This document shows positions 49,392-57,618 of a stretch of DNA of 64,000 nt, piece after piece. Each line of letters opens with the position of its first letter. Within the stretch, counting starts at the first letter, position 1. The translations under genes and the position numbers were made by a program. Below the pieces are notes generated by a model. The model did not search any database and was not told the DNA's origin. It saw only the letters and a program-made list of their open reading frames with translations. The DNA comes from a phage, in assembly GCA_024790105.1 (NCBI GenBank), contig GCA_024790105.1_3053.1. The stretch is one strand, 5' to 3'.

Positions 49392-49862
49392 TTAATCATG
49401 TTTCCACACCCCATCGGTATTTGACCAAAGTCGCTGATTATCTGATCCTCGCCACAGCTTTTTAGTCGGAAGATTTTTCTCATACTTCCCATCAATAATA
49501 ACATCAACATATTTAAGCATTTCTAGTTGTTTAATATCCTCAAACTTATATCCTGTCCACAACCAAATGCTTTTATTTGGATAAAGATTTTTTACTGTTT
49601 GAACAATGCAATGAATAACATCTCGGTTATCAGGATAGAGAGGGTCTCCTCCAGTTATAGTCAATCCTTCTATATAATCATTATTCAAACATTCAATTAA
49701 TTGTTCCAGTGTTTCACCAGTGAATGGAACGCCATTTCTAGCATTCCATGTTGATTTATTATAACACCCTTCGCATTTATGCAAACAACCAGTAACGAAA
49801 AGAACTGTCCTGCATCCAGGACCATTAACAAAGCAGCACGGGTATATTCTGTCATAATTCAT
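49392..49862 (-). CDS. nrdG: anaerobic ribonucleotide reductase activating protein NrdG (radical SAM)
   Basis: 156 aa; CLHKCEGC motif; ATG 49862. Confidence 0.9.
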   Translation of the reverse strand: MNYDRIYPCCFVNGPGCRTVLFVTGCLHKCEGCYNKSTWNARNGVPFTGETLEQLIECLNNDYIEGLTITGGDPLYPDNRDVIHCIVQTVKNLYPNKSIWLWTGYKFEDIKQLEMLKYVDVIIDGKYEKNLPTKKLWRGSDNQRLWSNTDGVWKHD

Positions 49863-50691
49863 TTATATATTTCCAATTATAGCCTTCAACACTTTTACGT
49901 TCGCCATTTAAACATTTTAAAATATTTCCTTTGCTAGAAATATTAAAATATTTTGCTGCGTCTGGTATATAATTAAATGTTTTTAAAAGAACACCATCTT
50001 TATATGCGCCAAATAAATTAAGAGTATATTTTTCTCGAAGACGCTGATGTTTCCTTTTCATAACCTCAGGATTTGCATACGCCAACTTCAATGAATTTCT
50101 GTGTTTTTCTTTTACTTCAGGTTTTTGCATTGCTAACTTAGTTAGCCTGGAAATTTTATTTCTAACTTCGTCAGTTTTCATTGCATTTGACAAATTTAAT
50201 AAAGTTTTATTTCTAACTTCAGGTTTTTGCATTGCTAACTTAGTTAGTTCTCTATGTCTTTTTCTAAAATCGTCATCCTTCCATATATTTTTCGATAATT
50301 TTGACATAGAGCGGTGAAATAATTCCTTTTCACTGGAATACAATTTAAAAATTTCATCCAATTCATCCGCATTAAATCTATCGGTATTCGAGTTTATCAT
50401 TCTATGAAAGGCATAACACATTTTACTATTGCTTGTTTTAGCTAAATAGTAATGAGCTAACGCATGGTCATAATATGACAAATTAACAATATTCCATTTA
50501 TCTGTTTTATATTCAGGAAATATAGATTTGGGAAGCACGTGATGTGCTTCCGTTTTTCCTTTTATTTTAGGATTATTATAATTTTTTGTTATCAAATCAA
50601 CATATGACAATAGTAAATCATTATTTTCTTCAAATATTAAAGATAATTTATCATTCACAAAATCGCAAGGATAAAATCTATCATAATTCAT
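49852..50691 (-). CDS. HNH homing endonuclease (MobC-like) between nrdD and nrdG
   Basis: 279 aa; EAHHVLPKS...DHALAH motif; N-terminus MNYDRFYPCDFVN duplicates nrdG N-terminus. Confidence 0.8.
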   Translation of the reverse strand: MNYDRFYPCDFVNDKLSLIFEENNDLLLSYVDLITKNYNNPKIKGKTEAHHVLPKSIFPEYKTDKWNIVNLSYYDHALAHYYLAKTSNSKMCYAFHRMINSNTDRFNADELDEIFKLYSSEKELFHRSMSKLSKNIWKDDDFRKRHRELTKLAMQKPEVRNKTLLNLSNAMKTDEVRNKISRLTKLAMQKPEVKEKHRNSLKLAYANPEVMKRKHQRLREKYTLNLFGAYKDGVLLKTFNYIPDAAKYFNISSKGNILKCLNGERKSVEGYNWKYINEL

Positions 50692-50703: not shown

Positions 50704-53566
50704 CTATGCATGTTTTACTCGTTTTACCATTTCTTTCATTTTACCTAAATTCCATGGGACAACGCTAGGAGTTCCAAGATATCCGCATGTTCTTCTTATT
50801 GTGTTCATCTTTTTAGGATCAGTTTCTCCACAAATAGAACAAACAAATCCGTTTTCAGTAGGAGTCATTTCATGGGTACTTCCACATGTAAAACATTTAT
50901 CTACTGGCATGTTAACACCAAAATAATCTAAATGTTGTACAGCATAATCCCATACAGCCTCAAGACCTTTTAGGTTATTTTTCATATCAGGAAGTTCAAC
51001 ATAAGAAATGTGACCACCTGTCGCAATGAAATGATATGGCGCTTCACGAGAAATCTTTTCAAACGGAGTAATATTTTCTTCTACTGAAACATGGAAACTG
51101 TTAGTGTACCAGCCTTTATCGGTAACATCCTTTACACTTCCATATTTTTCTGTATCAAGTTTACAGAAGCGATAACAAAGGTTTTCAGCAGGAGTCGAAT
51201 ATAAACTAAAAGCAAATCCAGTTCTTTCAGTCCACTGTTTAAGATGAGCATTCATTTTAGTTAAAATTTCCTGTCCAATATCACGACCGACAAGAATATT
51301 CAATTCATGAATACCAATGTATCCTAGGGACACTGAACTTCTACCATTTTTAAATAACTCAATTATATCGTCATCAGGTTTAAGACGAACCCCGAATGCA
51401 CCTTCTTGGTAAAGAATAGGAGCAACAGTCGCTTTAACTCCTTTTAAGGAACTAATTCTACACATCAAAGCTTCAAAACACAGATCCATTCGTTCATTGA
51501 ATAATTCAGTAAATTTCTGTTCATTGAACTGTGTTCCAATATAAGAATCTAACGCAATACGAGGAAGATTCAGTGTTACAACACCAAGATTATTACGTCC
51601 ATCAAGAATTTCATTACCAGTCGAATCTTTCCATACGCTCAAGAAACTACGGCAACCCATTGGAGAAACAGGAACAGATGAACCAGTGATAGCTTTATTG
51701 TTCTTAGCTGAAATAATATCAGGATACATCCTTTTGCTTGCACACTCTAGAGCAAGCTGTTTAATATCATAGTTCGGATCGTCTTTGTAAAGATTAACGC
51801 CTTCTTCGACGAACATAACAAGCTTAGGGAAAATAGGAGTTATCCCATCACGACCGAGACCTTTAATACGATTTTTCAGAATTGCTTTCTGAATCATTCG
51901 TTCAGTCCAGTCAGTTCCTGTACCAAATGTAATTGTTACAAAAGGTGTTTGTCCGTTTGAACTGAAAAGTGTATTTACTTCATCATTATATTCAGCATGA
52001 GTCGCAAATTCATGCCCGTTTATATGAAACGACAAAATTTGGATAGTCCATAGATATGCAACGTTCTTTTATAGTGCTAGGATGAAAATTTAGCGCTTTA
52101 GCTGCTTCTATATAAGACGTATACTTAATACCGTCAACAACCACATATTCAGGAACTTTATGAATAGTAGTCTTAATACTCAAAACAAGAGGATGAGTTT
52201 CGACTTCACTTTCAGTGCAATTTAAATATTCCGCTGCTTTTTTAAAACTTCTAAAAGTTTTATTTTTAAGCTTTATCGATACTTGTTTTTTACTTTTTCG
52301 ACTATTGATATTATTTTGCACATGTTCCTTAGATCTTCTGTTTTTAGCATAATATTCAGCCACAGAAGATTTTATATTGTTTTTATGAGATTCGGATAAC
52401 ACTTTACCCTTATGAGCATCTCTTAATTTTTGAATATGTTCTTCAGTATCCGGATGCTTATAAAACTTTTTACCGCCTATGGATTTATTTAAACATTTTT
52501 TGCTATAAAAATATTTACGTATGACCTCTTCTTCATGTTTTAATGCATCTTTATAACTATCAAATGTTTTTAAAATTATCCATTTAGTAGGTGTATCAGT
52601 TTTTAAGCGTTCATTTATATACTTAGATGACGTTGTGTAAGTTTTCCAGTTTGTGGGCTTGTTTTTAACTGTTCTAAATTTTTTATAACCGATATAAATG
52701 TCGCCATTAGAAAACTTAACTAAGTATGTAAATGCGTCTTTATCTTTTATTTTAGTACAACGTCTTTTTATCCATTTCATTGTTTCACCTCGTATTCATA
52801 AGATAATCTTATTTATACAAGATGACTGCTGCATGTCGCCATGCAGATTAGACTATATCTTCATCTTTCGATGCCGGCCGTTTCGAATAGCATTAGCTTC
52901 TATTCTACACCGCTACATTCATCACGGTTAGTCGTTAGGCATTTAGTTCAAAAGAACATTTAGCACGGGATTGTCTACTAGAGAGGTTCCCCGTTTAGAC
53001 CGGTTTTACATGAGCCTGAATTAAATTAACTCATACGCCTGGAATGCATCGTATACGTCTTTTTCTGTTTTAGATTGAGCATAATTCAACGCATCAGCGA
53101 TTTGCCATTTTTCTGCATCTTCAATATGTTTTGCATAGGTGCGTTTAACATAAGGAGAAAGTACTTTATCTACATTAGCAAAAGTCGTTCCGCCGTATTG
53201 GTGAGAAGCAACCTGTGCAGTAATTTGCGCCATAATTGCAGTAGCAACGCCAATTGATTTAGGAGTTTCAATCTGCGCATTACCAAGCTTAAATCCGTTC
53301 TCAAGCATTCCTTTTAAATCTACTAAACAGCAATTAGTAAAAGGAAGAGCAGGGGAATAATCAATATCGTGCACGTGAATAATTCCGCTTTCATGCGCTT
53401 TCATAATAAAAGACGGGACCATATTTTTGGCAATGTGTTTAGACACAATACCAGCCATAAGGTCCCGTTGAGTTGGAAAAACACGAGAATCTTTATTAGC
53501 ATTCTCGTTTAAAAGGTCTTTATTAGTTTTATGAATCAATCCTTCAATTTCTTTTTCAATTGTCAT
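50704..53566 (-). CDS. nrdD: anaerobic ribonucleotide reductase NrdD, interrupted by a group I intron; inferred join(50704..51983,53029..53566)
   Basis: exon 1 ORF from ATG 53566 and exon 2 ORF ending in glycyl-radical RRTCGYLG and Zn ribbon; splice coordinates inferred from U/G boundary rule assuming a 605-aa product. Confidence 0.8.
51984..53028 (-). mobile_element. group I intron (sunY/nrdD type) with 3'-located endonuclease ORF; boundaries approximate
   Basis: ribozyme core CUAAACGGGGAACCUCUCUAGUAGACAAUCCCGUGCUAAAU...AAAUGCCUAACGACUA...GAGAUAUAGUCU...CUGCAUGGCGACAUGCAGC read at 52781-53020. Confidence 0.7.
52010..52780 (-). CDS. intron-encoded GIY-YIG-type homing endonuclease (256 aa)
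   Basis: ATG 52780 with GAGGTGAAACA SD; TYLVKFSNGDIYIGY motif and NUMOD-like repeats. Confidence 0.75.
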   Translation of the reverse strand: MKWIKRRCTKIKDKDAFTYLVKFSNGDIYIGYKKFRTVKNKPTNWKTYTTSSKYINERLKTDTPTKWIILKTFDSYKDALKHEEEVIRKYFYSKKCLNKSIGGKKFYKHPDTEEHIQKLRDAHKGKVLSESHKNNIKSSVAEYYAKNRRSKEHVQNNINSRKSKKQVSIKLKNKTFRSFKKAAEYLNCTESEVETHPLVLSIKTTIHKVPEYVVVDGIKYTSYIEAAKALNFHPSTIKERCISMDYPNFVVSYKRA

Positions 53567-54036
53567 TTTAAACTCTTTCTAAGCTGCTTCTTGAATGAAG
53601 CTATTAATTGTGTTTTGGTGTCAGATTCATTATATTCAAATCCTCTTTGAAGCATCTCGGCCATCATTTCCTCTTTTCCTAAACGAGAAAATTCCTTTGA
53701 TTTATCTCCAACAAAGTTAGGGTGAATATTATTTTGGGTGTAATCGGATTTTAAATAAGTAAGTAAATTTTCTAACCATTCAAGATAATCAACACCTTGT
53801 CCCTTTAAGCCAGAACGATTAAATTTATGCTTCATTTGACCTTCTGCGGCATTGCATAGATTACAAAGCAATCCACGTACCTTTCCTGCTTTTGGTCCAT
53901 TTAATTCATGGTCATGATCAAGATGATTAGCTTGAACATCAGGATTTAGTTCTCGTTGGCAAATTAAGCATTTACCATTTTGTGCATCATAAAATTTCTG
54001 TTTTTCTTCTTTATATAATTTGCCAGTCAATAACAT
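53563..54036 (-). CDS. 49: endonuclease VII gp49 (Holliday junction resolvase)
   Basis: 157 aa; zinc-binding CLICQ...CNLCN; ATG 54036. Confidence 0.9.
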   Translation of the reverse strand: MLLTGKLYKEEKQKFYDAQNGKCLICQRELNPDVQANHLDHDHELNGPKAGKVRGLLCNLCNAAEGQMKHKFNRSGLKGQGVDYLEWLENLLTYLKSDYTQNNIHPNFVGDKSKEFSRLGKEEMMAEMLQRGFEYNESDTKTQLIASFKKQLRKSLK

Positions 54037-54077
54037 AATAAACCCTTACCTTAAATAGATAAGGGTATTTATTATTT

Positions 54078-54563
54078 TCAAGTATTGTAAAACATTTGAT
54101 TCAATCGCTTATATTGCCGAATCTTTTGGTCAGAAAAAGAAATTTGAGTTTCAAGCCATTCAATATATTCTGCCGCAGCTTGCATCAGGTTACCTTCATA
54201 GCCATCGTTATTTTCTTGTGCAGCTAATTTAGCTAATGCGTATGAAATACGTTCACCTTGAAAAGCGGCTTTAGGTATTTGAACATCTTGACTAGTTCTC
54301 TCTACAACTTCTTCAATTTCGCCATTTTCGACTGATTCAGTATTCCACAAGCACCAATACGTAATTGGCTTATCGTAGATGTTAATAATCTTTCCGTCGG
54401 AAAGTTCAATTTCAATAATTCCAGTATCAGGTTCTATATCATCTTCACATTCTTTTGCAAGTTCACGAACTTTAAAGACAGTACCTGCGCTAAGTTCCGG
54501 CCAGTAATTACATAGCCCTGTATCAGCACGATTAATTCTAAACCACTTATCTACTGTAATCAT
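54078..54563 (-). CDS. pin: Pin (Lon protease inhibitor)-like protein, 161 aa
   Basis: ATG 54563 with GGAGA SD; length and position. Confidence 0.65.
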   Translation of the reverse strand: MITVDKWFRINRADTGLCNYWPELSAGTVFKVRELAKECEDDIEPDTGIIEIELSDGKIINIYDKPITYWCLWNTESVENGEIEEVVERTSQDVQIPKAAFQGERISYALAKLAAQENNDGYEGNLMQAAAEYIEWLETQISFSDQKIRQYKRLNQMFYNT

Positions 54564-54603
54564 GTCCCATCTCCATATCAATTAAGTCATTTATTGTAGG
54601 TTC

Positions 54604-54633
54604 ATTATATACTGTTTCTTCATCAGTGTAAAC
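54604..54633 (-). promoter_or_regulatory. early promoter
   Basis: GTTTAC 54633-54628, 16-nt spacer, TATATAAT. Confidence 0.5.
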
Positions 54634-54685
54634 CGGTTCTTCCGGCTCTGGCTCTACAGTTTCCCATCTAACCGCCCACCAGGGT

Positions 54686-54856
54686 TTAACCCCGAAGCTT
54701 ATTAAGTTCTTCATAATCAATCCAGGATTCTAATCCTGATGGCAAATCAGATTCAATTTCCCAAAGAAGTTCTTCAATTTTCTGAAGACGATCTAATTCT
54801 TCGGCTGGAATAGTAACCATTGACGGAGTTCTTGATACATTAATATCGTAAATCAT
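54686..54856 (-). CDS. small acidic protein (56 aa)
   Basis: ATG 54856 with GGGGTAAAT SD. Confidence 0.45.
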   Translation of the reverse strand: MIYDINVSRTPSMVTIPAEELDRLQKIEELLWEIESDLPSGLESWIDYEELNKLRG

Positions 54857-54858
54857 AT

Positions 54859-55074
54859 TTACCCCAGTTTGACCATGCAATCGCCGTATTTCCATTTAGA
54901 AATAGACTTTTCGCCATTAGAATAATAAACTTCGAGTTTAGCACGATTATTTTTAATTTGAATAACCTTGGCTGTCATCAAAGTTCCATACCCATAGTAA
55001 ACTGCAACTTCATCACCTACATATACCGCGCTTCCACGGTAATCATGGATATAGTCAGTTCCTTCGAGCATCAT
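54859..55074 (-). CDS. hypothetical protein (71 aa)
   Basis: ATG 55074 overlapping nrdC stop. Confidence 0.6.
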   Translation of the reverse strand: MMLEGTDYIHDYRGSAVYVGDEVAVYYGYGTLMTAKVIQIKNNRAKLEVYYSNGEKSISKWKYGDCMVKLG

Positions 55075-55334
55075 TTAAAGTATTCCCGCAATTGGTCAAA
55101 TCCACCAATATGACTTCCATCAGGAGCAAATACCTGAGGCATTGTCAAGCCGATTTGAGTATCACGACCTAGTTTAGTCAGAAGCTCAGCAATTTTCTCA
55201 TCATCAAAAACACCTTTTTCCGGCATAATGTTGATAAATTCAAATGGCTGTTTCTTCACGGTCAAAAGACGTTTTGCATTATCGCAATACACACATTTAT
55301 GGATGTTGCTATCATAACCATATACTTTAAACAT
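55071..55334 (-). CDS. nrdC: thioredoxin/glutaredoxin NrdC
   Basis: 87 aa with CVYC active site; ATG 55334 with AAGGAATAAT SD. Confidence 0.85.
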   Translation of the reverse strand: MFKVYGYDSNIHKCVYCDNAKRLLTVKKQPFEFINIMPEKGVFDDEKIAELLTKLGRDTQIGLTMPQVFAPDGSHIGGFDQLREYFK

Positions 55335-55335
55335 A

Positions 55336-55578
55336 TTATTCCTTAATTCCTAGTACTTGTTTAAAAGTCTCGTCGTAATCAAGACTTTGGCCCGTTTGTT
55401 CTTTATGTTTGTATATAATATCACTTACTTCTGATAGCATATTTTTATATGAACGAGTTAAAGCAGATTTAAGCACGCTGTATCTATCAGGAAATTTACC
55501 ATGTTCATTATAATACGCTATTGCTAATTCACGGACTGCCTTTTCAGCAGCCTCCATATATTCTTTACGCTTGGTCAT
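55336..55578 (-). CDS. hypothetical protein (80 aa)
   Basis: ATG 55578. Confidence 0.6.
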
Positions 55579-55580
55579 TT

Positions 55581-55793
55581 TTAATCCAAAATATTATTAG
55601 GCATTGGTTGAACACTCACAAGTTCTTTAAAGAACTCAGTAGAGTCAGGCAATTTAACCATTTCCGGAGCATGCTTACTGAATTTATGTTTACATTGACG
55701 GCATTTATATTCAAGCTCTGGTTTACGCCAGTTAATCAATTGAACTTGTTCAGCACCGCATTCAGGGCAATTAGGAACGTTTTTAGAAGCTCT
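55581..55793 (-). other. start-less zinc-ribbon reading frame in -1 frame relative to upstream 275-aa ORF (candidate frameshift fusion or decayed gene)
   Basis: open frame RASKNVPNCPECGAEQVQLINWRKPELEYKCRQCKHKF... lacks ATG/GTG/TTG before first CxxC; overlaps upstream ORF 3' end by 55 nt; A5 run at 55780-55784. Confidence 0.4.
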
Positions 55794-56563
55794 TCAATTT
55801 GCTTATTAAAATAATCAATTTGTTCAGAATGTTTTTCATTACTACGAACTGGTACAGGTTTTGTAGGCAATTTAATTGAACTGGATTCATCCGGGCGATA
55901 AATTAAAATACAACTTGAACCAATAGGGCATTTTGCACTAGATGAATATTCTAATGTTCCGGCTTCTTTTAAAATTTCAAAAGCTAAACAGAGATGATGA
56001 CCCATATTGGCATAATCTGTAGAGTGAGCTCTAACGTAATAATCATCTCCACGAGTGCTAAATTTAAAGCATTTAAGGTCTTCTGTATTATTAGTTTTAA
56101 AAATCATTTGTTTATCTAGACCTTTAGCCAATCGAGCACCTAATGCTAATAATCGTCGTTGATTTTCCCACAAATCCGCAATCATTTGATCGAATGACAA
56201 TTTCGGCATTAGTCGACCATAAAGGTCGTATCCTTTATTATAATTGCGAAGGATTTCACTCGCGTTAATACGAGACAATGCTCCAATTTTATTAAGGGCT
56301 TTCATAATGCGATTAGATAAACTCATTCCAGATCCGTTTGTTCGCTGTAAATGTTTTTCTAATCCAAATCCAATATCAACTTTAAACTTATCTAAAATTT
56401 CGGCATGAACATCTTTATCAATAACATTCAAATCCAAAGTTGGGTTAAATCTATGAAAAAATTTATCTGGCTCTCCACGACGAAGTACAGTCCATTCATT
56501 CATCATTTTCTTATTAACTAAAGATTTAATTACTGCATTGACATTATTAATTACTACTGACAT
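55736..56563 (-). CDS. hypothetical protein (275 aa)
   Basis: ATG 56563 with GAGGAAAAT SD; ORF-track start is TTG. Confidence 0.65.
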   Translation of the reverse strand: MSVVINNVNAVIKSLVNKKMMNEWTVLRRGEPDKFFHRFNPTLDLNVIDKDVHAEILDKFKVDIGFGLEKHLQRTNGSGMSLSNRIMKALNKIGALSRINASEILRNYNKGYDLYGRLMPKLSFDQMIADLWENQRRLLALGARLAKGLDKQMIFKTNNTEDLKCFKFSTRGDDYYVRAHSTDYANMGHHLCLAFEILKEAGTLEYSSSAKCPIGSSCILIYRPDESSSIKLPTKPVPVRSNEKHSEQIDYFNKQIEELLKTFLIALNAVLNKFN

Positions 56564-56570
56564 ATTTTCC

Positions 56571-56978
56571 TCACTCAATTTCAATTTTACTAAATATACA
56601 GAATAAGATGGAACAGACTATATAAGCACCACACACAGATTGAACTAATACCATTCCAAAGAACCAAACAATATTATCAAACAATGTCTGTTTTACGTCG
56701 AAAGGACGTAAACTTACAGTAATATTATCACCTTTTTCTATTGATGAATACATCTCTGGCGAAATATATTCGCTAAATCTATAACCGTCTTTGAGTTCAT
56801 ATACGGCAATAAACGATAAACTAGATCCCTTTCCTTGTGTTCCTGTAATGGTATTAACTACAGTAACATCATAATCTTTATAATGCATATAATCATTAAT
56901 TGCGTAATAACCATATGCAATTACTATACATAAACAACATATCAATAAATTCAATCTTTTAATTATCAACTGTTTCAT
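56571..56978 (-). CDS. membrane protein (135 aa)
   Basis: ATG 56978; N- and C-terminal TM segments. Confidence 0.65.
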   Translation of the reverse strand: MKQLIIKRLNLLICCLCIVIAYGYYAINDYMHYKDYDVTVVNTITGTQGKGSSLSFIAVYELKDGYRFSEYISPEMYSSIEKGDNITVSLRPFDVKQTLFDNIVWFFGMVLVQSVCGAYIVCSILFCIFSKIEIE

Positions 56979-57007
56979 AATAATCTCAATTAAAAGGGCT
57001 TAGAACC

Positions 57008-57031
57008 ATTATACCATCCTTGGTATAAAGC
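57008..57031 (-). promoter_or_regulatory. MotA-box middle-promoter-like element
   Basis: minus strand cGCTTTA then 12 nt then TGGTATAAT. Confidence 0.45.
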
Positions 57032-57033
57032 GG

Positions 57034-57561
57034 TTATGCGAGTACCGTCTTTAACCGTTCTTCAAATTTCCGAAGAGTATTCTGGCGTTCAGCTCTTTGC
57101 TTTTTGTAAGTTTCAATACGCTCTGAAATGAGAGTGTATCGTTCATTTACTGATTCTTTCATAAAATCAGGAATTTCACGAGAAGCTTTAATCTCATCAA
57201 ATTTATCAATAACAGCTTGCTCTTCAGCAATTAAGTTATCATACATCAAAATATCTTTCTTGATGAACTCAATATCTTCTTGAGTTACACGAGATAATTT
57301 AGATGCTTTATCCTTTTTGTACTGCTCATTGGTGTCACGAGACCAGTGTAATGTACGATTTTTATTCGTATTCTTGTAAATTTCTACAATACCAATCTCA
57401 TCGATAATAACGATCCAATTCCAACGAGATTTGTAAATTTGTCCTCCATCAACAGTGATTTCACCTCCGATTGAGATGTCATTAAAGAACTTGCTTTGAG
57501 CTTCAGATTTAAATTTACCATCGTTATAATTTACCAGGTTGAAAATATCTTTAGCGTTCAT
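57034..57561 (-). CDS. hypothetical protein (175 aa)
   Basis: ATG 57561 after GGAGGAACAAAA leader. Confidence 0.65.
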   Translation of the reverse strand: MNAKDIFNLVNYNDGKFKSEAQSKFFNDISIGGEITVDGGQIYKSRWNWIVIIDEIGIVEIYKNTNKNRTLHWSRDTNEQYKKDKASKLSRVTQEDIEFIKKDILMYDNLIAEEQAVIDKFDEIKASREIPDFMKESVNERYTLISERIETYKKQRAERQNTLRKFEERLKTVLA

Positions 57562-57571
57562 TTTTGTTCCT

Positions 57572-57618
57572 CCGTAGTTGATAGTTGTATAGTACCACAG
57601 AGGAACGGTCTTGTAAAC
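57572..57618 (-). promoter_or_regulatory. early promoter cassette (near-identical copy of 3441-3487)
   Basis: GTTTAC 57618-57613 with conserved -10/leader. Confidence 0.6.

Follow-up and report, generated by a model that had tools for sequence, protein, structure and literature searches.

The window, the whole 64-kb stretch of phage DNA analysed here, is from a T4-type phage (Tequatrovirus). Neighbouring ORFs encode the endonuclease VII, Pin, NrdC (glutaredoxin), NrdC.1, NrdC.7 and NrdC.8 proteins of T4-type phages, and a 20-kb stretch is ~95–96.5% identical to many Tequatrovirus genomes. Since none of the matches listed for this stretch exceeded 92% coverage or 96.5% identity, the window represents a distinct T4-like phage. 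The − strand encodes the genes of this region. The intact nrdC.7 gene (56571–56978), whose product is 94.7% identical to RB51 NrdC.7, is located directly 5′ of a 275-residue ORF (55736–56563), which starts at the ATG at 56563–56561, with a GAGG just 5′ of it, and terminates at the TGA at 55738–55736. A second frame, displaced by −1 relative to the 275-aa ORF, is open from 55793, directly 3′ of a TGA at 55796–55794, to the TAA at 55583–55581. This frame comprises 70 sense codons (translation RASKNVPNCPECGAEQVQLINWRKPELEYKCRQCKHKF...) and contains two CxxC pairs, CPEC and CRQC. The first ATG, GTG or TTG of this frame is the TTG at 55739, which itself lies 3′ of the first cysteine pair, and a run of five A residues (the A5 run) occupies 55784–55780 on the − strand. 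The locus had thus been described correctly in an earlier, sequence-only reading: the stop of the 275-aa ORF, the 70-codon −1 frame with both cysteine pairs and without a start before the first of them, and the A5 run within the overlap were all recovered at the same positions. Directly 3′ of the 70-codon frame lies an intact nrdC.1 gene (55336–55578), which encodes a protein 100% identical to RB51 NrdC.1 and matches phrog_2052 over its full length, followed by nrdC (55071–55334; 100% identity to RB51 NrdC). A promoter and terminator scan of 55000–57100 returned 12 sites, against 10.0 ± 3.3 expected, and this background level is therefore uninformative on expression of the 70-codon frame.

The 275-aa product consists of two unequal parts. 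Residues 1–259 correspond to NrdC.6, with RB51 NrdC.6 residues 1–259 aligning by tblastn to window positions 56563–55787 at 96.5% identity, whereas residues 260–275 (LKTFLIALNAVLNKFN) are nrdC.2 DNA read out of frame. The native 37-residue C terminus of NrdC.6 (296 residues in RB51) is thereby lost. Consistent with this, the 275-aa protein covers only positions 1–266 of the 303 in the phrog_2257 profile, whereas RB51 NrdC.6 covers positions 1–303; the C-terminal 37 profile positions of the family are replaced by 16 unrelated residues. The Pfam family PF26899 (Phage_T4_Y05B) is listed for the same 275-aa product on an independently assembled Logan contig, described below.

The 70-codon frame corresponds to residues 60–129 of NrdC.2. 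It is identical to RB51 NrdC.2 at 69 of 70 positions (98.6%) and is thus no chance open frame. Against phrog_1474, the 70-aa fragment covers only positions 54–98 of 99, whereas RB51 NrdC.2 covers positions 1–98, so that the frame encodes a fragment of a family member that has no start codon of its own. Both CxxC pairs are retained, and the fragment scored 27.8 bits against Zn_ribbon_8 (PF09723), for which the cut-off is 34.4; PF09723 is precomputed for its closest full-length homologue (P0001). In our local Pfam copy, NrdC.6, NrdC.4 and NrdC.3 had no match, and NrdC.2 matched zinc-ribbon families below threshold only. The A5 run belongs to native nrdC.2 codons, TCT AAA AAC (Ser-Lys-Asn), and begins 4 nt 3′ of a heptanucleotide, AAGAGCT, at which the two gene fragments meet. 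Intact RB51 nrdC.2 carries the identical sequence GAGCTTCTAAAAACGTTCCTAATTGCCC across this run. Moreover, runs of at least five A residues occur at ~5 per kb on the − strand, with 0.28 expected in any 55 nt, and the A5 run by itself is therefore unremarkable.

To place these fragments in context, we compared the locus with 50,697 phage records by megablast. In ~500 relatives, the match to the 275-aa ORF breaks off sharply at window position 55788, and that to the zinc-ribbon frame and nrdC.1 sets in just as sharply at 55794. The annotation of these relatives names the first block nrdC.6 and the second nrdC.2, and places them kilobases apart. We used RB51 (locus L003) as the reference, since the T4 record OL964745 (L002) is that of a mutant with fragmented annotation. 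RB51 carries the full series nrdC.8, nrdC.7, nrdC.6 (296 aa), nrdC.5 (341 aa), nrdC.4 (333 aa), nrdC.3 (308 aa), nrdC.2 (129 aa), nrdC.1 and nrdC. Pairwise BLAST aligned window positions 57000–55788 with RB51 L003 426–1639 (96.0% identity), and positions 55794–55000 with L003 5001–5795 (98.2%). The 3,368 bp that separate the two blocks in RB51, which carry nrdC.5, nrdC.4 and nrdC.3, are missing from the window; RB51 is a proxy for the parent, ~96% identical on the nrdC.6 side, and both the length and the gene content of the missing segment are inferred from it. In agreement, NrdC.5, NrdC.4, NrdC.3 and residues 1–59 of NrdC.2 had no tblastn match anywhere in the 64-kb window.

A three-way alignment revealed that the window tracks nrdC.6 up to AAGAGCT and nrdC.2 from AAGAGCT onwards. 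This heptanucleotide is present at both breakpoint sites in RB51 (L003 1633 and 5001), and a single copy is kept in the window, at 55794–55788, where the ends of homology and the RB51 sites together define the junction. The probability of a microhomology of at least 7 nt at random breakpoint pairs in the RB51 region is P = 0.001, an indication that the event was guided by homology. At the nrdC.2 site, RB51 has the heptamer, but neither ACG-C40 nor the T4 mutant record examined was found to carry it there, so that the nrdC.2 of the parent must have been of the RB51 type. The codon phases at the two breakpoints are 1 and 2, and 3,368 mod 3 is 2; the nrdC.2 frame is therefore expected to land at −1 relative to nrdC.6, as observed. 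Thus, as in microhomology-mediated deletions, both flanks are collinear with RB51 and the intervening genes are gone, and of a short direct repeat found at both RB51 sites one copy is kept.

From these comparisons, the start-less zinc-ribbon frame is very probably the scar of a ~3.4-kb deletion in the dispensable nrdC–mobD accessory region and not a product of programmed frameshifting. The scar is one of ordinary gene loss, and represents one more case of the known microhomology-deletion class. The zinc ribbon would lack a start because the 3,368-bp deletion took the first 59 codons of nrdC.2 together with the ribosome-binding site. The 70-codon frame (55581–55793, codons 60–129 plus TAA) is thus best regarded as a 5′-truncated nrdC.2 pseudogene fragment with neither its own start nor a ribosome-binding site, and is probably untranslated. 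Of the three options in the sequence-only reading, only a decaying gene came close to the mark, and in essence it holds: the frame is an nrdC.2 remnant, very probably left by a 3,368-bp deletion joining nrdC.6 to nrdC.2.

The arrangement very probably arose as follows. In an ancestor whose genes were ordered as in RB51 (nrdC.7, nrdC.6, nrdC.5, nrdC.4, nrdC.3, nrdC.2, nrdC.1 and nrdC), recombination or replication slippage would have taken place between the two AAGAGCT copies, one at codons 257–259 of nrdC.6 and the other at codons 59–61 of nrdC.2. Such an event would remove one repeat copy and the whole interval between the two: 37 codons from the end of nrdC.6, the complete nrdC.5, nrdC.4 and nrdC.3 genes, and codons 1–59 of nrdC.2, including the site where its translation begins. 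A ribosome translating nrdC.6 would then pass into nrdC.2 DNA in the wrong frame and stop after 16 codons, and the correct nrdC.2 frame would be left as an open, start-less remnant of 70 codons containing the zinc ribbon.

We considered whether the overlap of the two frames might instead support programmed −1 frameshifting on CUA-AAA-A, yielding a functional fusion of NrdC.6 with the zinc ribbon beside the 275-aa product; the sequence-only reading had raised programmed frameshifting as one option, with a −1 slip at the A5 run. No stop interrupts the −1 frame within the overlap, tRNA-Lys in the P site could shift back by one base from AAA onto the overlapping AAA, and the slip would give ...EELLKNVPNCPECG...; the peptides predicted are ...QIEELLKTFLIALNAVLNKFN for the 275-aa ORF and ...QIEELLKNVPNCPECGAEQVQLINWR for the −1 frameshift product. 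Frameshift sites of the dnaX and IS911 type likewise have an A-rich run where an open −1 frame overlaps the end of the zero frame. Unlike those sites, the window has no tandem slippery heptamer, stimulatory structure, upstream Shine–Dalgarno-like element or conservation. The zero frame reads CUU CUA AAA ACG, in which there is no X XXY YYZ heptamer and only single-tRNA A-AAA re-pairing is available, and there is no GGAG-type element 5′ of the A5 run. The 90 nt downstream fold with a minimum free energy of −13.6 kcal/mol, compared with a mean of −15.3 for shuffled sequences (z = +0.57), and 141 of 200 shuffled sequences were equally or more stable. Furthermore, the two-frame arrangement is unique among 506 related records, and therefore no selection shaping a frameshift signal is detectable; the A5 run is carried over without change from intact nrdC.2, which reads it in frame. 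The zinc-ribbon homologues found in a collection of 5.8 billion proteins are stand-alone proteins of 93–122 aa, and none is fused to a large N-terminal domain. Together with a frame offset that follows from the deletion length, the lack of a slippery heptamer, downstream structure and conservation in relatives makes programmed frameshifting exceedingly improbable, although unprogrammed slippage at a low level may occur. Transcriptional slippage on the A5 run was also considered and rejected, as RNA polymerase slips efficiently only on runs much longer than five A residues.

The comparison with orthologues suggested in the sequence-only reading bears on the same question. A single ORF fusing the two parts was sought and found in none of the relatives. 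The outcome that the sequence-only reading had set as a refutation, orthologues with the two-frame arrangement and an independent start for the zinc ribbon, was in essence obtained: the zinc ribbon resides in an independent, start-bearing gene (nrdC.2, 129 aa in RB51), and no relative has the two-frame arrangement.

The junction is rare. It is spanned in 0 of 506 related phage records, the nrdC.6 breakpoint is read straight through in 496 of 498, and nrdC.5 is full-length in 493 of 496. Because the long form is near-universal among relatives by these counts, the short form is a rare derived state rather than an ancestral one. We rejected the reverse polarity, in which the short arrangement is ancestral and the long form arose by insertion, on the same near-universality and on the truncation of both flanking genes relative to full-length profiles. 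An exact 31-mer across the junction had no match in viral contigs. A junction 19-mer gave 1 viral and 103 metagenome matches (80 of the 103 listed), which we discarded as true junctions and attribute to chance, as a 401-bp junction query matched by BLAST, among all fetched loci, only a Logan contig (L108, SRR21296878_226); the viral and metagenome scans yielded no genuine junction. That contig, 4,625 bp in length, is 100% identical to window positions 52970–57594, through the junction and the A run, and encodes the exact 275-aa chimeric protein. The run from which it derives, SRR21296878, may stem from sequencing of the same isolate, or the phage may have been encountered there a second time.

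These data also bear on sequencing or assembly error, either as a miscounted A run that hides an in-frame nrdC.6–nrdC.2 fusion or as a misassembly that mimics a deletion. The sequence-only reading had listed a sequencing indel among its options; indel errors classically occur in homopolymer runs, and the A5 run sits in the overlap. However, the frame offset is fully explained by the codon phases of the two breakpoints (3,368 mod 3 = 2), with no need for an indel, and five A residues are present in intact RB51 nrdC.2 too. In addition, the 7-nt repeat is too short for assembly collapse, and the Logan contig was assembled from raw reads. As this contig reproduces the junction and the A run exactly, it is unlikely that the sequence was misassembled or that a homopolymer was miscalled in one assembly only, and on all of this evidence we consider an error of either kind very improbable.

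If the 70-codon remnant were translated at all, this might occur by termination–reinitiation at the TTG at 55739. A 52-aa ORF (55581–55739; peptide MINWRKPELEYKCRQCKHKF...) begins at this codon, which overlaps the TGA of the 275-aa ORF (TTGA, 55736–55739, − strand). Nevertheless, TTG is a weak start, and no Shine–Dalgarno sequence is seen 5′ of it (GAACAAGTTCAATTG). The 52-aa product would lack the first CxxC pair, making a four-cysteine zinc ribbon impossible, and the stop–start overlap was made by the deletion and is not conserved. There is thus only a slim chance that the remnant is expressed in this manner.

The deletion reading fits published behaviour of T4. T4 generates deletions of 0.7–6 kb, as well as amplifications, between microhomologies of 6–10 bp (Srikant et al. 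2022, PMC9391042). The T4 recombinase UvsX is needed for joining at minihomologies down to 3–4 nt in length, as described for CRISPR-escape deletions (Wu et al. 2021, PMC8262927). The window resembles these cases in being a kilobase-scale loss from a dispensable accessory region, at a short direct repeat of which one copy is kept; the repeat is 7 nt in the window, and 6–10 bp or 3–4 nt and longer in the two T4 studies. One published laboratory deletion likewise removed nrdC.5 (PMC9391042). Unlike the T4 deletions, that in the window belongs to a phage that is not T4 (~95–96% identity) and is seen in a sequenced genome rather than selected in a documented experiment, and its endpoints (nrdC.6 codon 259 and nrdC.2 codon 60) recur in 0 of 506 related records. 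The mechanism was presumably either UvsX-type minihomology recombination or replication slippage, and by analogy with the T4 work UvsX, rather than slippage, may have been used in the window's deletion.

The 11.3-kb delta-tk2 deletion of T4, extending from tk to nrdC.2 and cited in PMC3014915, is viable. Delta-tk2 resembles the window in removing a block of nrdC.x genes that ends in nrdC.2 from a phage that remains viable, which marks the region as dispensable, and differs in that it is much larger, has other endpoints and is a laboratory mutant of T4. Taken with the evolved T4 clones that lack nrdC.5 (PMC9391042), this published case suggests that the segment deleted here may be dispensable for growth.

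A natural counterpart is found in ACG-C40 (JN986846), which has an independent deletion in the same interval, with RB51 L003 1965 to 4687 missing. Of its nrdC.5 only a stub of 71 aa remains, and nrdC.4 and nrdC.3 are gone. Unlike the window, ACG-C40 has nrdC.6 in full length (295 aa) and an nrdC.2 (104 aa) that is complete and keeps its start, and there is no start-less remnant. The existence of this separate event indicates that the nrdC.6–nrdC.2 interval has been remodelled by deletion more than once. The nrdC.2 of ACG-C40 (L001 2435–3160) is of a divergent type, ~81–83% identical in DNA.

Several consequences may be expected from the deletion. NrdC.6 is probably truncated at its C terminus, and may or may not be functional, and NrdC.2 is probably inactivated. 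In intact relatives, the nrdC.2 stop codon lies a few bases before the ATG equivalent to 55578, which begins the 80-aa nrdC.1 ORF; in the window, the 275-aa ORF stops 155 nt upstream of that ATG. Because ribosomes would stop 155 nt upstream, any translational coupling to nrdC.1 would be lost. Biologically, the deletion matters chiefly through the loss of nrdC.5, which makes this phage one of very few Tequatroviruses without that gene. In the T4 study that described a laboratory deletion of nrdC.5, this gene was found to counteract the Dsr1 defence of E. coli ECOR17 (PMC9391042). The nrdC.5-dependent counter-defence would thus be lost and, given the reported anti-Dsr1 role, the phage is predicted to be sensitive to Dsr1-type defence, a testable effect on host range. 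The scar itself could be viewed otherwise: a low-level −1 slip on CUA-AAA-A might produce a useful, retained NrdC.6–zinc-ribbon chimera, a gene birth by deletion and slippage, or, separately, loss of nrdC.5 might have been an adaptive genome-size trade-off for a gain elsewhere, as in evolved T4 clones (PMC9391042). We give such outcomes very little credence.

On the preferred reading of a microhomology deletion, the junction has little mechanistic importance, and provides a clean natural example of how such deletions remodel T4-type accessory regions. For annotation, the label that suits the 275-aa product is a truncated, chimeric NrdC.6, and that for the zinc-ribbon frame is a pseudogene fragment of nrdC.2; neither should be called a frameshift gene.

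The surrounding region shows further variation among these phages. Start calls for nrdC.1 disagree: the gene encodes 80 aa from the ATG at 55578 in the window, in the Logan contig and in ACG-C40, and 73 aa from an internal methionine in RB51 (annotated at L003 5238–5459). The pin–nrdC interval (54547–55074, − strand) contains three short overlapping ORFs of 57, 69 and 71 aa, which are closer to the ACG-C40/RB32-type set (DUF7205, Phage_T4_Y04J) than to the T4 49.1–49.3 set, suggesting another mosaic segment. Further along, nrdD is split, with exon 1 ending near 53021–53064 and the remainder at 50704–52035. A group I intron (RF00028, 70.6 bits, full model) was detected in nrdD at 52829–53064 on the − strand; the whole-window Rfam scan at the gathering threshold had missed it, and a targeted scan scored it above gathering. 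The intron is followed by a 256-aa I-TevII-like ORF (52010–52780), as in T4, whereas RB51 nrdD is uninterrupted. Directly 3′ of nrdD exon 2, a 279-aa ORF (49852–50691, − strand) contains an HNH-like motif (HHVLPKS...DHALAH) and probably encodes a free-standing homing endonuclease of the Mob type.
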